This document shows, piece after piece, positions 25,844 through 34,894 of a stretch of DNA of 48,573 bases. Below the pieces are notes generated by a model, which was given only the letters and a program-made list of their open reading frames with translations, made no database searches and was not told the origin of the DNA. Within the stretch, counting starts at the first letter, position 1; the number at the start of each line of letters is the position of its first letter. The translations under genes were made by a program, and so were the position numbers. The stretch is from Candidatus Rokuibacteriota bacterium (lineage in GTDB: Bacteria; JAUVQV01; DATDCY01): contig JANOHV010000007.1 in assembly GCA_031406795.1 (NCBI GenBank), forward strand, positions 1 through 48,573, written 5' to 3'.

Positions 25844-26134
25844 TCAGCAACAGCCGCCGCTGCCGCGTCGTCCCGGGAGCACCTCGCCGAGCCACTCGCT
25901 GATCAACCCGGCGGCGCAACCGACGCCGACATCGACTTTGATCGCTTCGACCGGGCAATTCGTCCGGCAGGCGCCGCACTCCATGCAGCGGTTGGCGTCC
26001 ACGATCTGCGCCTTGTCGTCGCTCAAAGTGAAGACCTGGTGCGGGCAGACCTCCGCGCACATGCCGCAACCGATGCACGCCTCCCGGTCCATCTGGAGTG
26101 TCGCGACATCCGGCAGGTAGGAAAAGCCCTTCAT
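25844..26134 (-). CDS. hgcB: Mercury methylation ferredoxin HgcB
   Basis: CIGCGMCAEVCP, CMECGACRTNCP, GVGCA, C-terminal CC; directly downstream of hgcA. Confidence 0.95.
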   Translation of the reverse strand: MKGFSYLPDVATLQMDREACIGCGMCAEVCPHQVFTLSDDKAQIVDANRCMECGACRTNCPVEAIKVDVGVGCAAGLISEWLGEVLPGRRGSGGCC

Positions 26135-26148
26135 TGCCCCTCCTCAGC

Positions 26149-27270
26149 TCAACGCAGCGCGGCGGCAATCCAGCAGCCGAAGCCGGCAACCAGTCCGCAG
26201 GCCATCACCGGCATCGAGAGGCGCATCTCCCGCTTCACCCCGGAGAGCGACGTGAAGGGGGTACTGCCCGTGAAGTTCAGGGCGAGGAAGGAGCTGACGG
26301 CGCTCACCAGGAGCAGGGTCGCCGCCGCCTCGAGCCCCCGCCACCCGGTGACCGCCAGGAAGGCCAGGGACCAGAGCAGCCCGACGACCGCCCCCTTGAC
26401 GGCGAAGCTGCGCGTCGGCAGCCAGGGGAGGGCCAGCGGGGTGACGATCGTGCCGGTCGCCAACGCCCCGCCATACGCCAGGACCGCCGGGATCGCGGCG
26501 GCGGGGGAAAACTGGCCGTCGCGCCAGGCCGCGGCGAGCGCGAGCGGCGGCACAATCCAGGCCGAGCCCTTGAGGGCGATGACCAGTTCGATCGGGATCA
26601 GCACCAGGCGCTCCCGCAGCGTGAAGGTCAGCTCCCGCATCCGCGGCGTCGTCTGTTGGCCGCCGTCGAGGTAGCGGGGGATATCGGCCGCCTGGATCGC
26701 GGCAAAGTGCACCGAAAACCCCGTGCGCGCGCGGATCTCGAACGCCGAAACCCCGGGCGCCCCGAGCAGCGGCAGAATCAGGCGCCGGTGCCGCACGACC
26801 CTCGCCAGGCCGGAAGTCTCGATCCGGGTGATGAGTTCCTCGCTCCCGAAGGTGCCCTTGCCGGCGGCGCACCAGACGTTGATCCCGTGCGTCTCCAGCA
26901 CGAGGAGCCAAACGTTGCGCCCGACGAGCACCGCCCTGACGAGGTCGAAGCTCATCTTGTAGTTCGCCGTGACCAGCACCGGGTCGTCGGGGGTGGGAGC
27001 GCCGAAGGCATAAAGTCCCGGGGGAACCAGGTAGGACATGCGGCCGATTCCCCAACGCGCCTTCCAGGCCCCGAGGCGGTCGGCGCGGGCGAGCGCCGGC
27101 GAGATCACCGGCACCCGGCCCGCGGGCGTCTCCAGCCAGTGCTGGAATCCCGCCACCCGCTCGTCGACCTTCCCGCTGACCGCGGGAGTCTTCGGTCCTC
27201 AGCACGGTTCCTTGTCGACGGCGGGCCCGCACGCGGCGGCCGGCGCCATCGGCAGGAACTGTTGTGTCAT
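26149..27270 (-). CDS. hgcA: Mercury methylation corrinoid protein HgcA, with in-frame UGA (probable Sec24)
   Basis: TANYKMSFD, GINVWCAAGKGTFG cap helix, C-terminal TM helices, NFTGSTPFTSLSGV; ATG 27270 is in frame through TGA at 27201-27199. Confidence 0.93.
27166..27201 (-). promoter_or_regulatory. Bacterial SECIS-like hairpin
   Basis: UGA, then GAC-UCCCGC-[GGUCA]-GCGGGA-ag-GUC; the G-initiated loop begins 17 nt after the UGA. Confidence 0.7.
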
Positions 27271-27283
27271 CGCAACGCCGTCC

Positions 27284-27751
27284 CTATTTTGCCTGGTGCA
27301 GCTGCATCCCGCACATGCAGGCGCCGGGCTTGTCCGAGAGGGTGTTGCAGCCGCAGGAACCGCCGCAGTTGCAGAAGTAAAGGCCGCTGCCCTCGAGGTT
27401 GAGCCGCTTGATCGGCTTGCCGCAGCCGCACTTGGCGTGGTCCTTCGGGTCGATCTTGCAGGTGCAGGTCGGGCCGCAGGTGCAAGCCAGCGCGGTGTTG
27501 CCCTCCGTGAAGACCACGTGGCCGCCCGCCATCTCCTTACCGCAGGTGCACTTGCCCGGCTTCAGGGATACGGTGTTGCACTTGCACTCGGGGCCGCAGG
27601 CGCACCAGTAGACAACCGACGACCCGTGCGACCCGCCCTCCATGGAACCGTGCCCCTTGTGCTTCCCCTGATGCCCCCCGCCGTGGTGGGCGCAGGCGCC
27701 GAGGACGAAGGCGGCGGCGATCAGGACGAATGCTGCTGCGAATCTCTTCAT
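27284..27751 (-). CDS. His/Cys-rich metallothionein-like lipoprotein
   Basis: Signal peptide with LGAC lipobox, His/Gly linker, nine CxC motifs in three repeats; AAGGAGG SD; stop 13 nt before the hgcA ATG. Confidence 0.85.
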   Translation of the reverse strand: MKRFAAAFVLIAAAFVLGACAHHGGGHQGKHKGHGSMEGGSHGSSVVYWCACGPECKCNTVSLKPGKCTCGKEMAGGHVVFTEGNTALACTCGPTCTCKIDPKDHAKCGCGKPIKRLNLEGSGLYFCNCGGSCGCNTLSDKPGACMCGMQLHQAK

Positions 27752-27808
27752 GGCGCTCCCTCCTTGATGGGTATCCCGGATTCGCCGGTCAGGTCGACCG
27801 ACCCCCCT

Positions 27809-27837
27809 AATGTACGGCGCGCGGCGGGGTGCGTCAA
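27809..27837 (-). promoter_or_regulatory. Sigma70 promoter of the lipoprotein-hgcA-hgcB operon
   Basis: TTGACG-17 nt-TACATT on the minus strand. Confidence 0.65.
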
Positions 27838-27853
27838 GGGCGCCGTGCAATTT

Positions 27854-27872
27854 TGGGCCTTTTTCAGCGGCC
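27854..27872. repeat. Terminal fragment of the MITE-like element at 32289-32416
   Basis: TGGGCCTTTTTCAGCGGCC is one mismatch from the reverse complement of that element's left end. Confidence 0.55.
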
Positions 27873-27874
27873 CG

Positions 27875-28201
27875 CTACCCGAACGAGCAGACATACTCGG
27901 TGATGCCGCCCTCGACCTCGATGTCGAAGGCGGAGTTGGCCGCAACCGGGAACGAGGTGCCCGCGACGTACGTTTTCCATGAACTCTCGCCCTTGAGGCG
28001 CACGCGGCAGGAGCCGGCGACGATCGCCATCACCTCGGCGGCGGCGGTGGTGAAGTTGAACGAGCCCGGATAGATCAGGCCGATCGTCTTCTTCGCGCCG
28101 TCGGCGGTGAAGACGGTGTGGCTGACCACCTTGCCCTCGAAATAGATGTTGGCCTTGGTGACGACGGAGACGCCGTCGAACTTCTCGGGTGCCTTGGACA
28201 T
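27875..28201 (-). CDS. ppnP: Pyrimidine/purine nucleoside phosphorylase (DUF1255)
   Basis: KANIYFEGKVVS, KKTIG, F.T.AAEVM, EYVCSF. Confidence 0.9.
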   Translation of the reverse strand: MSKAPEKFDGVSVVTKANIYFEGKVVSHTVFTADGAKKTIGLIYPGSFNFTTAAAEVMAIVAGSCRVRLKGESSWKTYVAGTSFPVAANSAFDIEVEGGITEYVCSFG

Positions 28202-28226
28202 TCTGCGCTCTCCCTTGCGATGGGTC

Positions 28227-29633
28227 TTACTGCTTGCGGTCCAGATGCAGGAACTCCGCGATCGCCGTCGCCGACGCCGGCAGTTCCACCGGGCGGTTCT
28301 GCAGCTCCTTCTTCGGCTCGATCTCGTATTCGGCGCTCAAGCTCCCCTCGAAGTACTTCTGCTGGAAGTCGGCGAACTTGAGCTGGTGCGCGGTGGAGTC
28401 GACGACGACCCGCATCCCCGGCTCGATCACCTTCGCCCGCAGCGCCGCGGTCAGCCCGGCGACGCCCTCGCCGCCCTGCGTGCAGATCACGTGCCCGTGG
28501 CGGTTGGCGGTGAGCATCGCGTCCATGATCTGTTGTTCGGTGACCTCGACCACGGCGAAACGCTCGCGGAAGTGCTCCTCGACGAGCCGGCGTACTTTCG
28601 GAAAGGAGACCGGGTTGCCGATCATCGCCGCCTGCGCGACGCTCGCGGTCACCCGCACCGGCTCATAGGTGCCGCGCTTCTTCCAGAGGTACACGGGATT
28701 CGCGTGGCGGCTCTGCACCCCGACGAGCAGCGGCAGCCGCCCGATCATCCCGAGGCGCTGCAGGTCGAGGAAGCCTTCCATGACCGCGGTGACGTTGCCG
28801 GCGTTGCCGATCGGCACGACCACGGCCAGGTCATCGGTTCGCCAGCCGGCGTTCATCGCCACCTCGTAGGCATAGGACTTCTGCCCGTTGATGCGCACCG
28901 GGTTCTTGGAGTTGAGCAGGAAGACCTGGTAGTCGCGCGAGAGCTCCTCGACGATGCGCATGCAGTCGTCGAAGACGCCCGGAACCTGGATGACGGTGGC
29001 CCCGCTGCCGAGCGGCTGCGAGAGCTGCTGCGGGGTCACCTTGCCGGCGGGCAGCAGCACGACCGATTTGACCGTCCCCTTGGGGAGGTAGGCGAGATAG
29101 AGCGCTGCGGCGGCCGACGTGTCGCCCGTGGAGGCGCAGATGCCGAGCACGTCGCGCACTCCCCAGCGCTTGATGGCGTGATTGAGGTACGAGATCGCCG
29201 AGGCCATGCCGCGATCCTTGAAGGAAGCCGAGGGGTTGAGCCCGTCGTATTTGATGAAGAAGGGCGCGCCGACCGCCGCGGCGAGATCGGCGTTGGCGGG
29301 TATGACCGGCGTGTGCCCCTCGCCGAGCCAGATGACGTCTTCCGGCGGCACGCAGGGGAGGATCAATTCGTGGAACCGGAAGATCCCTTGCAGCGAGGCG
29401 GGTTCGGCTGCCAGCGCCCGGTAGGCGAAAAGACGCTGCCAGAACTCCCCGCTGCGGCTCTTGAGGGACTCGAAGGCGAGATCGCGCAGCGAAAGCAGGC
29501 CGCCGCAGGCCGGGCAGGTGTAGGCGAAGCGCTCGATCGGGTGGCGGGCGGCGCACGAGACGCATTCGTAAACCACCTCGCCACGGTACGTGGGGGCAAT
29601 GGCGTCGCGGATGTCATCAGGGAAGTCGATCAT
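28227..29633 (-). CDS. thrC: Threonine synthase
   Basis: LGEGHTP, NPSASFKDRGM, CASTGDTSAA, PIGNAGN; start MIDFP after an AGGAGG SD. Confidence 0.93.
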   Translation of the reverse strand: MIDFPDDIRDAIAPTYRGEVVYECVSCAARHPIERFAYTCPACGGLLSLRDLAFESLKSRSGEFWQRLFAYRALAAEPASLQGIFRFHELILPCVPPEDVIWLGEGHTPVIPANADLAAAVGAPFFIKYDGLNPSASFKDRGMASAISYLNHAIKRWGVRDVLGICASTGDTSAAAALYLAYLPKGTVKSVVLLPAGKVTPQQLSQPLGSGATVIQVPGVFDDCMRIVEELSRDYQVFLLNSKNPVRINGQKSYAYEVAMNAGWRTDDLAVVVPIGNAGNVTAVMEGFLDLQRLGMIGRLPLLVGVQSRHANPVYLWKKRGTYEPVRVTASVAQAAMIGNPVSFPKVRRLVEEHFRERFAVVEVTEQQIMDAMLTANRHGHVICTQGGEGVAGLTAALRAKVIEPGMRVVVDSTAHQLKFADFQQKYFEGSLSAEYEIEPKKELQNRPVELPASATAIAEFLHLDRKQ

Positions 29634-29661
29634 CAACGGCTCCTCCTGTCCCAAAGTCCTA

Positions 29662-29715
29662 CGGGGTCCTGTCGCTGCGCACCGCCGGGGGCCCCCGCTT
29701 CGCGCCACCCCTTCG
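29662..29715 (-). repeat. Dispersed structured repeat, copy B
   Basis: Reverse complement matches 20784-20862 without that copy's 25-nt insert. Confidence 0.75.
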
Positions 29716-29791
29716 TCCCGCTCGAGTCGAAAAAGCCGGTCCGATGTGCGCCTTTAAAGAATACCACGAACTTTACCGGGCCGAGTGGCGC

Positions 29792-30334
29792 TCAGGGCTG
29801 CGTCGGAGCCGTCCCCTCCTCGGGGAGCGCGCCGAGGTAGGGGAGATTGCGGTACTGCTCGCGGTTGTCGAGGCCGTAGCCCACCAGGAAGCGGTCGGGA
29901 ACCTCGAAACCGACATATTGGATCGGTAGCTTCGTTAGCCGCCGGACGCGCCGGTCGAGCAGGGTGCAGATGGCGAGGCTGGCCGGCTCGCGCGACTGAA
30001 GATTGCGCACGAGGTAGCCGAGGGTCAGGCCGGTGTCGACGATGTCCTCGATGAACAGGACGTCGCGGCCGGTGATCGGGAGGTCGAGATCCTTCTCGAT
30101 GCGCACTACGCCGCCGCGCTTGCCGGCGCCATAGCGGGTGATCGCCATGAAGTCGAGGTTGATCGGGAGAGTGATAGCGCGCGAGAGATCGGCGAGGAAG
30201 ACGAACGACCCCTTGAGCACGGAGACGAGGACGGGGATGCGGCCGGCGTAATCGCGGGAGATTTCCGCACCCAACTCCCCAACGCGCCGCCTCAGCTCGT
30301 CCTCGCCGATCACCACGGGAATATTTTCGCGCAT
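29792..30334 (-). CDS. hpt: Hypoxanthine phosphoribosyltransferase-like protein (deviant paralog)
   Basis: VLKGSFVFLADL, IEDIVDTGLTL, VGYGLD, YRNLP; but ITRY and LLDR in place of the usual SSY and LLDK. Confidence 0.85.
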   Translation of the reverse strand: MRENIPVVIGEDELRRRVGELGAEISRDYAGRIPVLVSVLKGSFVFLADLSRAITLPINLDFMAITRYGAGKRGGVVRIEKDLDLPITGRDVLFIEDIVDTGLTLGYLVRNLQSREPASLAICTLLDRRVRRLTKLPIQYVGFEVPDRFLVGYGLDNREQYRNLPYLGALPEEGTAPTQP

Positions 30335-30369
30335 GGCGCCTCCGGGGTGGTGCATTTTCCCCGGAAGGC

Positions 30370-30377
30370 ATTATATT
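30370..30377. promoter_or_regulatory. Overlapping divergent -10 elements (hpt / ncRNA copy 1)
   Basis: TATAAT on the minus strand (30375-30370) overlaps TATATT on the plus strand (30372-30377). Confidence 0.55.
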
Positions 30378-30384
30378 GGAAGTG

Positions 30385-30531
30385 GGCCCCGAGAGGTTGG
30401 AACGGCGTGCCCTAGAGGGAACGGGAAGAAGGCTGGCTCCAGAGCTTGAAACAGAGCCTGTGCCAGGAACCAAGCGACCGTTAGGAGATTCCCTCTAGAG
30501 CGGAAGATGCCAAGTACGGTCACTCGGGGCC
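30385..30531 (+). ncRNA. Structured ncRNA, copy 1 (unassigned family, rod-like)
   Basis: Closing stem GGCCCCGAG/CTCGGGGCC, inner stem CTAGAGGGAA/TTCCCTCTAG, conserved apical domain, T-rich 3' flank. Confidence 0.8.
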
Positions 30532-30551
30532 GTACTTTATTTCCTTCTGTC

Positions 30552-30570
30552 GACGCCTCCGGGAGGTGTC
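30552..30570. terminator. GC-rich hairpin between the two ncRNA copies
   Basis: GACGCCTC-CGG-GAGGTGTC. Confidence 0.3.
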
Positions 30571-30638
30571 ACCCCCCTAAGTCGCTTCTGCATGAACCGC
30601 ATGGGCCGAGCGAGTGCTCTCGTCCGACGGTTTTCCTG

Positions 30639-30666
30639 TTGCAAATCCCGTGGAGGATATTAGATT
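30639..30666 (+). promoter_or_regulatory. Sigma70 promoter of ncRNA copy 2
   Basis: TTGCAA-16 nt-TAGATT, ending 7 nt before the RNA stem. Confidence 0.6.
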
Positions 30667-30673
30667 GATATCA

Positions 30674-30819
30674 GGCCCCGAGAGGTTGGAAAGGCGGCAC
30701 TAAAGAGGGGATAAGGGACGGTTGGCTTCAGGGCTTGAAACAGAGCCTGTGCCAGAAGCAACAAAAGCCGTTGGGATGTCCCTCAGGTGCCAGAAAGCCC
30801 GGTACGATCACTCGGGGCC
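30674..30819 (+). ncRNA. Structured ncRNA, copy 2 (paralog of copy 1)
   Basis: Same ends and identical 23-nt core; stems GGCACT/GGTGCC and GAGGG/CCCTC covary with copy 1; followed by TCTTTTCTT. Confidence 0.8.
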
Positions 30820-30848
30820 TCTTTTCTTGTGAGAGCCCTGCGCCCGCG

Positions 30849-31808
30849 CTACTCGAAGCCGAACTTCTGAGCGAGCTTTTTGAAGTCCCGGCCGTAGAAG
30901 ATCAGCAGTTTCTTGTCCGGGTAGCGCTCCCTGAAGAGCCGGACCTTGCGGTTCTTCTTCGTCACGAGGGATTGCTTCATCGTGGTCAGCTCGAGATACG
31001 TGTCCATCTCGGTGAGATAGAAGTCGGGAGAGAAGCTCGACTTGACGCGGCCGTCGGGCCACCACTCGACGGGGAACGTCTCGGGTTCGTACTTCCAGGG
31101 GATGCGATAGAAATCGAGGACTCTCGCGAACTCCGCCTCGCTTTCATTGGCGAAGCGCGTCGGCGTGGGCGACGCCGGGAGGGGGTCGAGGTCGATTTCC
31201 CGAGCCCCCCGTGTCTGGGCGCACGCCCGGATCTCCTCGAAGCCGCCGGAACCGGTCAGGCCGCAGGCCGCGACCGCCTGTTCGATGAGAGCCGCCGCCG
31301 TTTCAACGCCGAGCGTGTCGACGCGCAGCACCAGGTCGTAATGCTCGGCCCGCGTCAGATCCTCGCCGAAGTGCTGCCGCACCAGCCGCCGCCGCGCCTG
31401 TTCCCGGCGCTGGAGTGCCGCGCCGCTGCGCCGGGTCCCCTGCGCCTCGGCTGTCGCGAGGCGGAATTCGAGTGCGGCGCCCAGTCGGACGTGCAGCGCG
31501 CCGGGGCAGCCGCTGAACAGGAACTGTCCGCCGAAGCCCAGCAGTACGATATTCTCCCGAAATGCCAGGTGCCAGATGATGCCTTCGGTGGCAGCGCGAA
31601 CAGCGCGCGCCTCCGCGTCCGGTTGCCCCGGCGAATCGGCGGCTGGAGGTTCGTCGAGGCGGCCGATGGCGGCGAGCAGATCGTAACTGTAGAGCAGTTC
31701 GCGCATCAGCGCGCGGTCGAGCAGGCGGAAGCCCAGGCGGCGAGCGACCTCGGCGGCGACGTCCTCGCCGCGGCAGGCCTCGAGGCGCGAGACGGTTACG
31801 ATCGCCAT
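30849..31808 (-). CDS. Cytidylate-kinase-like domain fused to a PD-(D/E)XK-fold domain
   Basis: N-terminal MAIVTVSR...LHVRL...HYDLVL; C-terminal SEAEFARVLDFYRIPWKYEPETF...FSPDFYL...YLELTT. Confidence 0.8.
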   Translation of the reverse strand: MAIVTVSRLEACRGEDVAAEVARRLGFRLLDRALMRELLYSYDLLAAIGRLDEPPAADSPGQPDAEARAVRAATEGIIWHLAFRENIVLLGFGGQFLFSGCPGALHVRLGAALEFRLATAEAQGTRRSGAALQRREQARRRLVRQHFGEDLTRAEHYDLVLRVDTLGVETAAALIEQAVAACGLTGSGGFEEIRACAQTRGAREIDLDPLPASPTPTRFANESEAEFARVLDFYRIPWKYEPETFPVEWWPDGRVKSSFSPDFYLTEMDTYLELTTMKQSLVTKKNRKVRLFRERYPDKKLLIFYGRDFKKLAQKFGFE

Positions 31809-31968
31809 GGAGAGTCGCGCGGCGGGAAAATGCCCATGGGCGGACTATAGCGGTGAAATCGCCGGCCGCCAAGCCTTCCGCCTCCCAAGTTTCGTCGCCC
31901 GAGCAGATCCGCCGCGTATCATCCGCGGGGAGTTGCGGACGTTGCGCCCAGCGGGTAAAGTAGCGCTC

Positions 31969-32301
31969 ATGGCAGCGCGTCAGCGACTCCGCGACATGAA
32001 GCCGAAGGCTCCCGACAGCCGGCCGGTCTCCGAGATCGTCGGAGAACTCCGGAAGAATCTGCCGGCCTCGGACTATCGCGAGCAGAGCCTGAAGATTCAC
32101 GGGCTGATCTGCGCCAAGTGTGCGCGGGAGTTCGAGCCCAAGGACCGGCATCTGCTGACGGTGCACCACAAGGACGGCAACCACGGGAACAACCCCCAGA
32201 ACGGCTCGAACTGGGAGAATCTCTGCGTCTACTGCCACGACGACGAGCACAGCCGCGGCGGACTCGGCGAGTACTACCGCAAATCCCGGGCAGGCCGCTG
32301 A
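31969..32301 (+). CDS. yajD: YajD-family HNH nuclease
   Basis: YREQSLK...CAKCAREF...LTVHHKDGNH.NNP..GSNWENLCVYCHDDEH; start may be 31996. Confidence 0.85.
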   Translation: MAARQRLRDMKPKAPDSRPVSEIVGELRKNLPASDYREQSLKIHGLICAKCAREFEPKDRHLLTVHHKDGNHGNNPQNGSNWENLCVYCHDDEHSRGGLGEYYRKSRAGR

Positions 32302-32416
32302 AAAGGGCCCATCTGCGGCGTTGGGCTTCGCCCTTCGTCACTGCGGCGTACTGCTCGTACGCCTCATTCCTCAGGACTTGCCCGCCTTGCACCTGGGCCC
32401 TTTTGAGCGGCCTGCC
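32289..32416. mobile_element. MITE/REP-like element with terminal inverted repeats
   Basis: GGCAGGCCGCTGAAAAGGGCCCA...TGGGCCCTTTTGAGCGGCCTGCC; internal hairpin GGCGTAC...GTACGCC. Confidence 0.8.
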
Positions 32417-32425
32417 TGAGGACAG

Positions 32426-33238
32426 ATGAAGGAAATCACCAGTGTGCGGAACGCGGCGCTGCAGCGCTATCGCGCCCTGCGCGACTCGAAAGTGCGGCGT
32501 GAGACCGGCCTCGCCGCTGCCGAGGGCTTCAACCTGCTGCGCGAGGCGCTGCTCTCCGAGGTCGGGCTCGTCCAGGTCTTCCTGAGCGAGCGCGCGCGGG
32601 GCAGGACGGACTTCACGGACATCGCGGCGCGGCTGGAGGCCGGCGAGTCGGCAGGTCACTGGGAGTGCTTCGCGGTCCCCGGGGAGGTGCTCGAGCGTGC
32701 GGCGCACACCGAAAGCCCCCAGGGGGTGCTCGCGTTGTTTCGGCCGCCCGTCTTCGATCTCGAGGATGTGCTCGCCGGAGACGCTCCCGTCCTGCTGCTC
32801 GACCGGATCGCCGACCCCGGCAACCTCGGCCTGATCCTGAGGACCGCGGAGGCCGCCGGCTGCGGCGGCGTCGTTGTCGGCCCGGGGACCGTGGACCCGC
32901 TCAATCCCAAGTGTGTCCGCGCCAGCGCCGGGAGCATTTTTCGCTTGCCGGTTGCGCACGCGGGACTCGAGGCGGCGGCCACGTCCCTGGCGACTCGCGG
33001 CGGGCGTCTTTTCGCGACTTCGCCCCACGGCGGCATCGTGTACACCGAGGCGGACCTCTCCGGACGGGTCGGCCTGCTCCTTGGCCAGGAGGGCGGAGGG
33101 CTCGCGCCGGGACTTCTCGAACAGTTCGAGGGTTTGCGTATCCCCACCGGACGGGTCGAGTCGCTCAATGTCGCCATGGCGGCGGGTGTCCTGCTCTACG
33201 AGGCCCGGCGACAGCGGTTGACCGGGAACCGGCAATAG
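32426..33238 (+). CDS. TrmH/SpoU family RNA methyltransferase
   Basis: DPGNLG.ILRTA, RASAGS, GQEGGGL, ESLNVAMAA. Confidence 0.92.
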   Translation: MKEITSVRNAALQRYRALRDSKVRRETGLAAAEGFNLLREALLSEVGLVQVFLSERARGRTDFTDIAARLEAGESAGHWECFAVPGEVLERAAHTESPQGVLALFRPPVFDLEDVLAGDAPVLLLDRIADPGNLGLILRTAEAAGCGGVVVGPGTVDPLNPKCVRASAGSIFRLPVAHAGLEAAATSLATRGGRLFATSPHGGIVYTEADLSGRVGLLLGQEGGGLAPGLLEQFEGLRIPTGRVESLNVAMAAGVLLYEARRQRLTGNRQ

Positions 33239-33408
33239 GCGTTCCCATCCGGCGGCGTGCCGGGAGCAGGGGGCTGACAGGGTTGTGTTATTTCTCTTTT
33301 TCGCTATCATTATCTGAAAATCGAAGAGTCCTAGCACATTGCAGGAGCATTACCCTCGGGGACGGGCGCCTGTTCGCGTCGGGGTATTGAGACAAGGGAG
33401 GATTTCAC

Positions 33409-33894
33409 ATGGCGAAGGCGAAGAAGGTGACCGCGGCTTCCAAGACCGCAGCTGAAACAAGGACGGCGTCGGCCGGCAAGAAGGCAGCCGTCGCCAAGGC
33501 GGCAAAACCGGCTCCCAAGGCGGCAGCCCCCAAGGCCGCTTCAGCCGTACCGGCGAAAAAGTCCCATGAAATCAAGGCGCTGAAGCCAGGCGGGCTCGAG
33601 AAGAAGTACCTCAAGCAGGGTTCCGTCTGCAGCGTGACGTTCGTCCTGCCCAAGGCCGCGGCCCCCGATGCCGGGTCGGTCTGCATCCTCGGCGAGTTCA
33701 ACAACTGGTCGGTGGACGCGCATCCGCTCGTCAGACGTGAAGAGGGCGACTTCGTGGTCACCCTCGATCTCGAGGCCGGCCGGGCGTATCGTTTCCGGTA
33801 CGTGATCGATGGCTGGAAGTTCGAAAACGACTGGTTTGCCGATCGATACGAGCCCAACCCCTACGGCGGCGAAGATTCTGTAGTTGACGTCTAG
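33409..33894 (+). CDS. CBM48/isoamylase early-set domain protein with Ala/Lys-rich N-terminal tail
   Basis: KKYLK...VTF.LP, GEFNNW, YRFRYVIDG..ENDW.AD.Y.PNPYG. Confidence 0.85.
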   Translation: MAKAKKVTAASKTAAETRTASAGKKAAVAKAAKPAPKAAAPKAASAVPAKKSHEIKALKPGGLEKKYLKQGSVCSVTFVLPKAAAPDAGSVCILGEFNNWSVDAHPLVRREEGDFVVTLDLEAGRAYRFRYVIDGWKFENDWFADRYEPNPYGGEDSVVDV

Positions 33895-34894
33895 CCGATC
33901 GCCGAGCGATCCACCGCAGCGAATCGTCGTCCGCGCGCCCAACTGGCTCGGGGACCTGATGATGGCGACGGGGGTCTTGCGCGCAATCATCGAGCGCTGG
34001 CCGGCCGCGTCGGTCGACCTCATCGTGCGTGCCGGCCACGAGGCGCTCCCGCTGCCGCGCCGCGGCCGGGTGATCCCGTTCGACCCCGGCACGATCTCGG
34101 CCGGGGCCTTCGGCGCCCGCCTGCGGCAGGCCAGGTATGATCGGTTTTATGTTCTGCCGCCGAGTTTCTCGGCGGCGTGGATGGCCTGGCGCAGCGGGGT
34201 TCCGGAGCGTGTCGGCCACCGCGGGCACTTTCGCGCCCGGCTGCTGCGGCGGCCGCTCGCTCCGCGCGCGCCGGCGCGCAGCGTGCATCTCACGCGCGAG
34301 TATCTCGACCTGGTCGATCCGGCGCTCGAGATCGACTGCTATCCGCCCCGGATCGACCTCCCCTCCGGCTGGCCGGCCGAACAGCTGTCGCGGATCTGCC
34401 GCGCGCTGCCGGATCGGTTTGTCGCGATCGCGCCCGGGGCGGTGTACGGCCCGGCCAAGTCCTGGCCCGCGGAACGCTACCGGGAGCTGGCGCGCGAGTT
34501 GCGCGATCGCGCCGGGACACCGGTGGTACTGCTCGGCACGCGCGAGGAACATGCGCTGGCGGAGGAGGTTCGCGGCGACGAGGGGGGGATTCTCAACTGG
34601 TGCGGCACGACCGACCTGCCGGGCCTGGTCGCGGTTCTCTCCCGCGCGGCGCTGCTCGTAAGCAACGACTCGGGCGCGATGCACGTGATGGCCGCGCTCG
34701 GGCGCCCGCAGGTGGCGATCTTCGGTTCGACATCGCCCGTCTGGACCGCCCCGATCAATGCGAAGGCCGTCGTGGTCACGCGCGGTCAGGAATGCGCGCC
34801 CTGCTTCGCGCGCACCTGTCGCTACGGTCACTACGACTGCGTGAGGAAGATTCCCGCCTCCGAAGTGCTGGCAGCCGCACTTGCGCGCCTCTGA
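33884..34894 (+). CDS. waaF: Lipopolysaccharide heptosyltransferase II
   Basis: RAPNWLGDLMM, APGAVYGPAKSWP, SNDSGAMH, CAPCFAR.C. Confidence 0.9.
   Translation: MTSSRSPSDPPQRIVVRAPNWLGDLMMATGVLRAIIERWPAASVDLIVRAGHEALPLPRRGRVIPFDPGTISAGAFGARLRQARYDRFYVLPPSFSAAWMAWRSGVPERVGHRGHFRARLLRRPLAPRAPARSVHLTREYLDLVDPALEIDCYPPRIDLPSGWPAEQLSRICRALPDRFVAIAPGAVYGPAKSWPAERYRELARELRDRAGTPVVLLGTREEHALAEEVRGDEGGILNWCGTTDLPGLVAVLSRAALLVSNDSGAMHVMAALGRPQVAIFGSTSPVWTAPINAKAVVVTRGQECAPCFARTCRYGHYDCVRKIPASEVLAAALARL

Follow-up and report, generated by a model that had tools for sequence, protein, structure and literature searches.

The locus lies in a stretch of 48,573 nucleotides of a Candidatus Rokuibacteriota genome (GenBank assembly GCA_031406795.1, contig JANOHV010000007.1, positions 1 to 48,573; the whole of this stretch is called the window here), and comprises two tandem RNA genes, copies A and B, situated between hpt and the gene for a 319-amino-acid protein, P0001 (Table 1). 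The RNA pair is divergent from hpt and convergent with the P0001 gene. Both copies have sigma-70-type promoters, which place +1 at 30385 (a G) for copy A and at 30674 for copy B, in each case 7 nt after the -10 hexamer, and the hexamer layouts of the two copies align with each other and with those of their relatives. A promoter-like hexamer pair, (scoring at least 8/12 at a fixed distance), was seen in 31 of 45 family members, and a tail with at least 6 T per 12 nt in 37 of 46; a generic, stricter promoter scan listed neither copy's promoter site. The -35 hexamer of copy A overlaps the start codon of hpt on the opposite strand, which leaves the two divergent transcription units with a very compact control region in common. 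Six long ORFs near the locus (26098-29840 and 31303-34831) have no Pfam match at E≤0.001; gene calls in these two intervals are uncertain because several of the ORFs overlap on opposite strands, in GC-rich DNA.

Table 1. Features of the two-RNA locus and its flanking genes (positions in the window).
Feature	Position	Strand	Description
hpt (hypoxanthine phosphoribosyltransferase)	29792..30355	-	PF00156; TIGR01203 HGPRTase, 181 bits (cut-off 150)
Promoter of copy A	30350..30377	+	-35 GTGCAT (30350-30355), 16-nt spacer, -10 TATATT (30372-30377)
RNA copy A	30385-30531	+	147 nt
T-rich tail of copy A	30532..30546	+	GTACTTTATTTCCTT; 3' of closing helix; presumed intrinsic terminator
Promoter of copy B	30639..30666	+	-35 TTGCAA (30639-30644), 16-nt spacer, -10 TAGATT (30661-30666)
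RNA copy B	30674-30819	+	146 nt; architecture as in copy A
T-rich tail of copy B	30820..30830	+	TCTTTTCTTG; converges on the 3' end of the neighbouring gene
P0001, 319 aa	30849..31808	-	N-terminal Cytidylate_kin2 (PF13189) and conserved C-terminal domain (residues ~214-319)

Copies A and B are 75% identical overall. The initial annotation, made from the sequence of the window, had noted that they share a 5' end, a 3' end and a 23-nt core, and this was borne out: the 5' 18-mer GGCCCCGAGAGGTTGGAA and the 12-nt 3' end TCACTCGGGGCC are the same in both copies, and the window contains the core at two places only, 30444-30466 and 30733-30755, whereas 100 shuffles yielded 0 matches. Also present are the GGAAG/AGAAA purine stretches and the CCGTT motif that the annotation listed, CCGTT being kept in 24 of 30 close relatives. 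In the predicted fold of each copy the two ends pair to close a long imperfect hairpin (-63.3 kcal/mol, z -3.1, for copy A; -69.1 kcal/mol, z -5.3, for copy B), and the reverse strands of both fold more weakly than the plus strands. The terminal helix of copy A consists of 9 bp, an A-A mismatch and 5 bp; then come a GAA/AGUA internal loop and the interior helices, with an apical hairpin at 30431-30470. Copy B has interior helices of different sequence, and the 3' strand of its loop reads GGUA, not AGUA.

We searched metagenome, genome and viral collections with a degenerate pattern of the two RNA ends, which matched 45 metagenome loci and 18 genome loci, (63 altogether), and no viral contig. 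RNA features, (a correctly spaced promoter, a T tail and a rod fold), accompany 56 of the 63 matches; the other seven (L022, L035, L038, L044, L056, L078 and L080) were read as chance, because they were without promoter, tail and rod or lay in coding-like sequence, and they were removed before alignments were built. Scored with the covariance model R1, copy A reaches 167.7 bits and copy B 129.1 bits.

The closest relatives are in three other species of the genus, each with one A-type copy in the same place between hpt and the gene for the 319-aa protein, while in G004, a member of the same order, there are two copies, unlinked, whose promoters follow the same layout. The RNA is present in five of the six genomes of the window's small GTDB phylum, whose MAGs are labelled Rokubacteria or Rokuibacteriota. 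Beyond that phylum, homologues occur in MAGs labelled Methylomirabilota, Thermoleophilia and other Actinomycetes, Chloroflexota and Clostridia, including 4/4 genomes of the class whose MAGs carry the Clostridia label. Tandem arrangements recur: the metagenome locus L060 has a B-type copy in tandem with an A-type copy, L070 and L084 have extra tandem copies outside the pattern, and in two of the Clostridia-labelled MAGs the model found a second, off-pattern copy about 630 nt from the first.

What is conserved in sequence across 45 non-redundant members is the terminal helix only, (the 9 bp, A-A mismatch and 5 bp described above), with the consensus 5' GCCCCRAGAGG-U / 3' R-UCACUYGGGGC and an invariant purine-purine mismatch. 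In the more divergent members, one of which is about 270 nt long, the 5' GAGAGG is kept and the mismatch is G-G or G-A in place of A-A. This helix also covaries. At pair 7/170, 39 members have G-C and 6 have A-U, and neither G-U nor A-C occurs, though the search pattern permitted all four; pair 1/176, which lies outside the pattern, is GC in 17, AU in 13 and GU in 5; and pair 4/173 is C-G or U-A across phyla. Individual genomes add a compensatory change from G-C to A-U in the closing helix of G004, a C-G to U-A exchange in that of the off-pattern second copies of the Clostridia-labelled MAGs, and a change from A-U to G-C at pair 8 in G311.

The interior helices were compared among 30 close relatives. 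Taken alone, copies A and B show few compensatory changes; once 28 relatives were added, double changes were seen in 24 of 46 pairs, against 9.3 in shuffles (0/500 of which reach 24), and 90.3% of cells were paired, against 32-49% when the partners were slid, in an alignment that was fitted to the model and so favours the structure. RNAalifold, run independently on the same 30-sequence alignment, retained 35 pairs, and 14 of these show double changes. The proposal that the stems vary in sequence yet keep their pairing is therefore upheld and, with the folds, promoters and tails, this covariation bears out the reading of the locus as two genuine structured non-coding RNA genes of about 147 nt.

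Two further structural proposals stood in part. The first placed the peak of conservation at the apical stem-loop, which is right for the two paralogues compared with each other but not for the family, in which it is the terminal helix that is conserved instead: the apical 23-mer is identical in only 12 of 30 close relatives, and in other phyla the apex is unrecognisable. The second was a sarcin-ricin/loop-E (bulged-G) motif in both copies. Called by the sarcin-ricin/loop-E consensus, the motif holds for copy A, which has GAA opposite AGUA, but copy B has the variant GGUA and the motif is lost in 7 of 30 close relatives, RGUAC being kept in the remaining 23/30. In other subfamilies it is absent at copy A's position or shifted; the subfamily of the Clostridia-labelled MAGs has the same strand pair one helix further in. 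Judged from these sequences, the GAA/AGUA motif is sarcin-ricin-like and frequent but apparently dispensable, and it is not conserved among homologues.

Part of the stretch occurs in nineteen sequencing runs recorded as RNA, of which four runs from three studies were examined. A 179-nt metatranscriptome contig with a depth of 31.3 spans 30407-30529 with one difference; adapter letters directly adjoin it at either end, so that the insert would be about 30396-30529. Two other RNA-library runs gave contigs that span 30437-30699 and 30437-30649, and a 683-nt contig spans 30407-31000; stretches left uncovered by such contigs, (for example 30200-30388), carry no weight as evidence. We take these contigs as support for transcription and not as proof, because strand and ends are not shown by them and DNA may be present in the libraries. 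In one RNA-library contig position 30534 is connected to 30859 through 22 other letters, so that the spacer and copy B are missing from it; this fits a relative with a single copy, as in G001 and G002.

Comparison with known RNAs returned no family for the locus. A cmscan of the whole window against Rfam 15 at the gathering threshold found nothing overlapping either RNA copy, a scan of 30300-30900 at E≤10 gave no relevant match, and scans of 14 homologous loci at E≤1 gave nothing over the homologues; the proposed lack of a known-family match was thus confirmed, and for the homologues as well. The family is absent from Rfam 15 and we found it in no catalogue or paper, a full-text literature search having returned no description of it. 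The bacterial SRP RNA model (RF00169) is unmatched here and finds a canonical SRP RNA (76.8 bits) on another contig; a canonical 6S RNA also lies elsewhere in the genome (71.4 bits, on another contig), and because canonical copies of both are present, these RNAs are neither 6S nor SRP RNA. We likewise reject a MITE or other dispersed repeat, for which the initial annotation had envisaged dozens of scattered copies, because the 4.1-Mb genome holds two copies only, by BLAST and by both covariance models.

The neighbouring P0001 protein may give a first indication of what the RNA works with. Its C-terminal domain, about 105 aa long and without annotation, keeps 45-61% identity between phyla; the invariant residues include S23, E24, E26, D62, E73, Q79, K85, N86, K88 and R90 (in the numbering of the 124-aa form of the domain), and K78 is kept in at least 90% of sequences. 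It matches Pfam Phage_endo_I at E 0.006, below that family's cut-off, and a T7 endonuclease I chain in the PDB at E 0.016. In an AlphaFold2 model of the domain (pLDDT 84) the best Foldseek matches are all PD-(D/E)xK nucleases, (the R2 restriction-like endonuclease domain, T7 endonuclease I, Bax1 and I-Bth0305I), and are weak (E 0.016-0.1); its language-model neighbours are the Phage_endo_I and DUF1064 clusters, and one NCBI record names a relative of the domain a 'PDDEXK family nuclease'. The domain is thus predicted, by these models and profile scores, to bear a weak resemblance to the PD-(D/E)xK nucleases.

Some 5,000 protein clusters contain the domain, as 3,423 short forms and 1,516 longer forms, and their annotations read hypothetical, cytidylate kinase family or hpt only; many of the 120-aa forms are labelled 'hypoxanthine phosphoribosyltransferase' by one source. 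It occurs alone, fused to Cytidylate_kin2, as in P0001, or fused to a Pribosyltran (Hpt) domain, the last in three proteins among the longer forms (P0255, P0271 and P0333). Of 28 domain-centred loci from several phyla (the window at 30849-31808 on the minus strand, L087-L089, L098-L109, L113-L122 and L139-L143), 27 have hpt directly after the domain gene on the same strand (13/13, 10/10 and 4/5). Among 151 sampled genomes of the phylum to which the Clostridia-labelled MAGs belong, 14 have the domain; for sampled Actinomycetota genomes the figure is 76 of 151 (70/145 when six unpublished genomes are set aside), and for other families drawn from across Bacteria it is 5 of 145.

No more than about 300 nt separate the RNA from the domain gene and/or hpt in the window, G001-G003, the subfamilies L025/L065 and L062/L059, and in G041, G042, G046, G047, G147, G079, G177 and G423, of which G147, G079, G177 and G423 came from looking beside the domain gene; many metagenome relatives of the window also have the RNA beside this module. 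At least four different gene orders are represented. In the window, G001-G003, L025/L065 and L062/L059 the RNA lies between the domain gene and hpt on the opposite strand, and G423, from an unrelated family, has exactly the window's layout. In G041 and G042 a single strand carries, in this order, the domain gene, RNA1, hpt, RNA2, metF and fhs; in G046 the cytidylate-kinase-like (CK-like)-domain gene and hpt follow the RNA as a pair; and in G147, G079 and G177 the RNA is convergent with hpt. The domain was present in 18 of 19 RNA-positive genomes tested, a count that comes from related genomes and not from independent samples; the sole exception is G004, which is 92% complete and has two RNA copies with the domain not detected.

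The linkage is not universal. In Actinomycetota, Methylomirabilota and Chloroflexota loci the RNA is elsewhere and not beside the module; five actinobacterial loci (L061, L072, L073, L075 and L132) have it convergent with a gene for a UPF0182 (PF03699) membrane protein of about 950-980 aa, the 3' end of which faces the RNA. At L077 a convergent ORF of about 979 aa lies beside the RNA. The domain is also much commoner than the RNA as detected: in the phylum of the Clostridia-labelled MAGs 14 of 151 genomes have the domain and 4 the RNA, and in Actinomycetota the corresponding figures are 76 and 3 of 151. Under strict filters the model R2 detected the RNA in few domain-bearing genomes; we do not treat these negatives as absence, because the model demonstrably misses divergent copies (those of G147, G079, G177, G311 and G423), and many domain-bearing genomes may nevertheless truly lack the RNA.

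The best reading of the RNA is as a scaffold for protein binding, as the initial annotation had suggested, and the module is the best candidate for its partner because the linkage recurs though rearranged. We therefore propose, with a probability of about 0.5, a trans-acting, protein-binding structural RNA tied to the CK-like/PD-(D/E)xK-Hpt module. Each of the paralogous genes would be transcribed independently into a stable rod of RNA about 147 nt long; beyond its terminal helix the rod would be made up of variable, covarying helices and purine-rich internal loops; and the RNA would act in trans, bound by a protein for which the conserved terminal helix could be the recognition site. The likeliest partner would be the adjacent (cytidylate-kinase-like)-PD-(D/E)xK-domain protein, working with Hpt. 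Physical binding, the identity of the binding protein and the mode of action, (whether the RNA regulates the protein, is cut by it or scaffolds it), are what we infer from this conservation and linkage.

A more specific and more tentative form of this proposal, to which we give rather less than even odds, is that the rod is the RNA part of an ancient, undescribed ribonucleoprotein module common to several phyla. The PD-(D/E)xK-like domain might then recognise the terminal helix with its purine-purine mismatch, and the RNA might regulate the domain protein or be processed by it, so coupling the RNA to purine salvage.

The first alternative to be weighed against a trans-acting RNA is a cis-acting leader or attenuator of purine-salvage and folate genes, either a riboswitch or a protein-dependent attenuator of the PyrR kind, in which a ligand or protein would stabilise the closing helix, which with the U tail would act as a terminator. 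The closing helix and T tail are indeed terminator-like, and in some lineages the RNA is placed as a leader would be: it is sense-oriented and directly upstream of genes in G041, G042 and the metagenome locus L064, which matches them, where RNA1 ends 27-35 nt before hpt and RNA2 precedes metF and fhs, and in G046 it precedes the CK-like-domain gene and hpt. A downstream gene in the same orientation is thus present in G041, G042 and G046; in the window there is none, as both copies point away from hpt and towards the convergent P0001 gene. In G001-G003, L025/L065, L062/L059 and G423 the RNA occupies the opposite strand, and it is convergent with hpt in G147, G079 and G177 and with the UPF0182 gene in the five actinobacterial loci, which makes a leader function unlikely as an account of the family.

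The likeness to the pyr attenuators bound by PyrR extends to the protein. Hpt shares the PRT fold of the RNA-binding regulator PyrR, so that in both cases an RNA is linked to a nucleotide-salvage protein of this fold and, in one class, the RNA is placed before hpt as a terminator-bearing leader. However, matches to PyrR are weak and Hpt here scores as a true HGPRTase, the RNA is far larger than the PyrR binding loop, and in most lineages it is on the other strand or unlinked.

A shared transcript of the domain gene and hpt, if there is one, would cross both RNA genes of the window in antisense, and the RNA could then be a cis-antisense RNA or a transcriptional insulator of the CK-like/PD-(D/E)xK-hpt operon. 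Such a role would agree with the near-constant adjacency and co-orientation of the two genes (27/28 loci) and with the place of the RNA in the window, G001-G003, L025/L065, L062/L059 and G423, where it occupies the opposite strand of the interval that separates them. Against this, the RNA is conserved where it is unlinked to these genes (in Actinomycetota, Methylomirabilota, Chloroflexota and G004) or sense-oriented, and the compensatory changes indicate that RNA structure is under selection, something that antisense pairing by itself would not demand; we consider this explanation improbable.

We give equally little credence to a trans-acting, base-pairing sRNA that would use the variable purine-rich loops as seeds. 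A stand-alone gene with variable internal segments would suit such an RNA, and the initial annotation had raised complementary targets of these segments, but BLAST of copy A against its own genome gave matches of 14-19 nt at E≥0.5, the best of them 16 nt long at E 0.5, and no significant complementary site. The RNA is, moreover, almost fully paired, its conserved part is a helix and not a single-stranded seed, and the family pattern is unmatched in viral contigs.

The initial annotation had also remarked that the rod shape recalls 6S RNA, and a second, 6S-like RNA binding RNA polymerase holoenzyme has been considered. Like 6S RNA, which occurs as paralogous pairs in some bacteria, this is a stand-alone bacterial RNA forming a long imperfect hairpin closed by its 5' and 3' ends, and it is present in RNA libraries; one copy adjoins folate genes in two genomes, which recalls the linkage of the ssrS (6S) gene to ygfA. 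Unlike 6S RNA, the window RNA is shorter, has no sequence or structure match to it (RF00013 is unmatched here even at E≤10, while finding the canonical gene elsewhere) and is without a large central bubble, the minimum-free-energy and consensus folds showing small internal loops only, the largest of about 6 by 11 nt. The likeness thus fails, and such a role is very improbable.

Least probable of all, to the point of being negligible, is a CsrA sponge of the CsrB/RsmZ type or a Y RNA bound by Ro60 (Rsr): the RNA is GGA-rich with paired termini, and as in Y RNAs a conserved end-to-end helix is the presumed protein-binding site while the rest is variable, but CsrA (PF02599) was not found in the window's own genome (G000, 99.9% complete), G043 or G345, the TROVE domain of Ro60 (PF05731) was found in 0/5 RNA-bearing genomes, (control genomes matching as expected), the helix sequence is another and Rfam gives no match. 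PF02599 is present in G041 and G045.

The trans-acting, protein-bound RNA that we favour also calls to mind type III toxin-antitoxin systems of the ToxI type, in which, as here, tandem RNA genes lie beside a nuclease-like gene. Unlike ToxI-type RNAs, the units in the window are long (147 nt), independently transcribed, chromosomal and syntenic across phyla; the neighbouring protein is paired with a housekeeping hpt, and the family pattern is absent from viral contigs.

To our knowledge, it is rare for a widespread bacterial RNA to have a strong promoter of its own and a conserved fold but no known function, and the solved cases, (6S, Y RNA, OLE and similar), each began new lines of work. The family described here, which is not in Rfam 15, spans at least five phylum-level lineages, some of them poorly sampled, and it gives a first functional handle on an unnamed, very conserved, hpt-linked protein domain. 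Should the RNA and the module work together, they could represent an undescribed, RNA-linked layer of purine salvage in many bacteria.

Other RNA genes were seen near some family members. The L064 contig, with one member of the family, also holds a TwoAYGGAY RNA (RF01731, 66 bits) at 43-198 on the minus strand. In G147 (L102, 209-425 and 3068-3141) two tRNA genes are located about 370 nt from the divergent RNA copy, and a further one is found beyond the domain gene.
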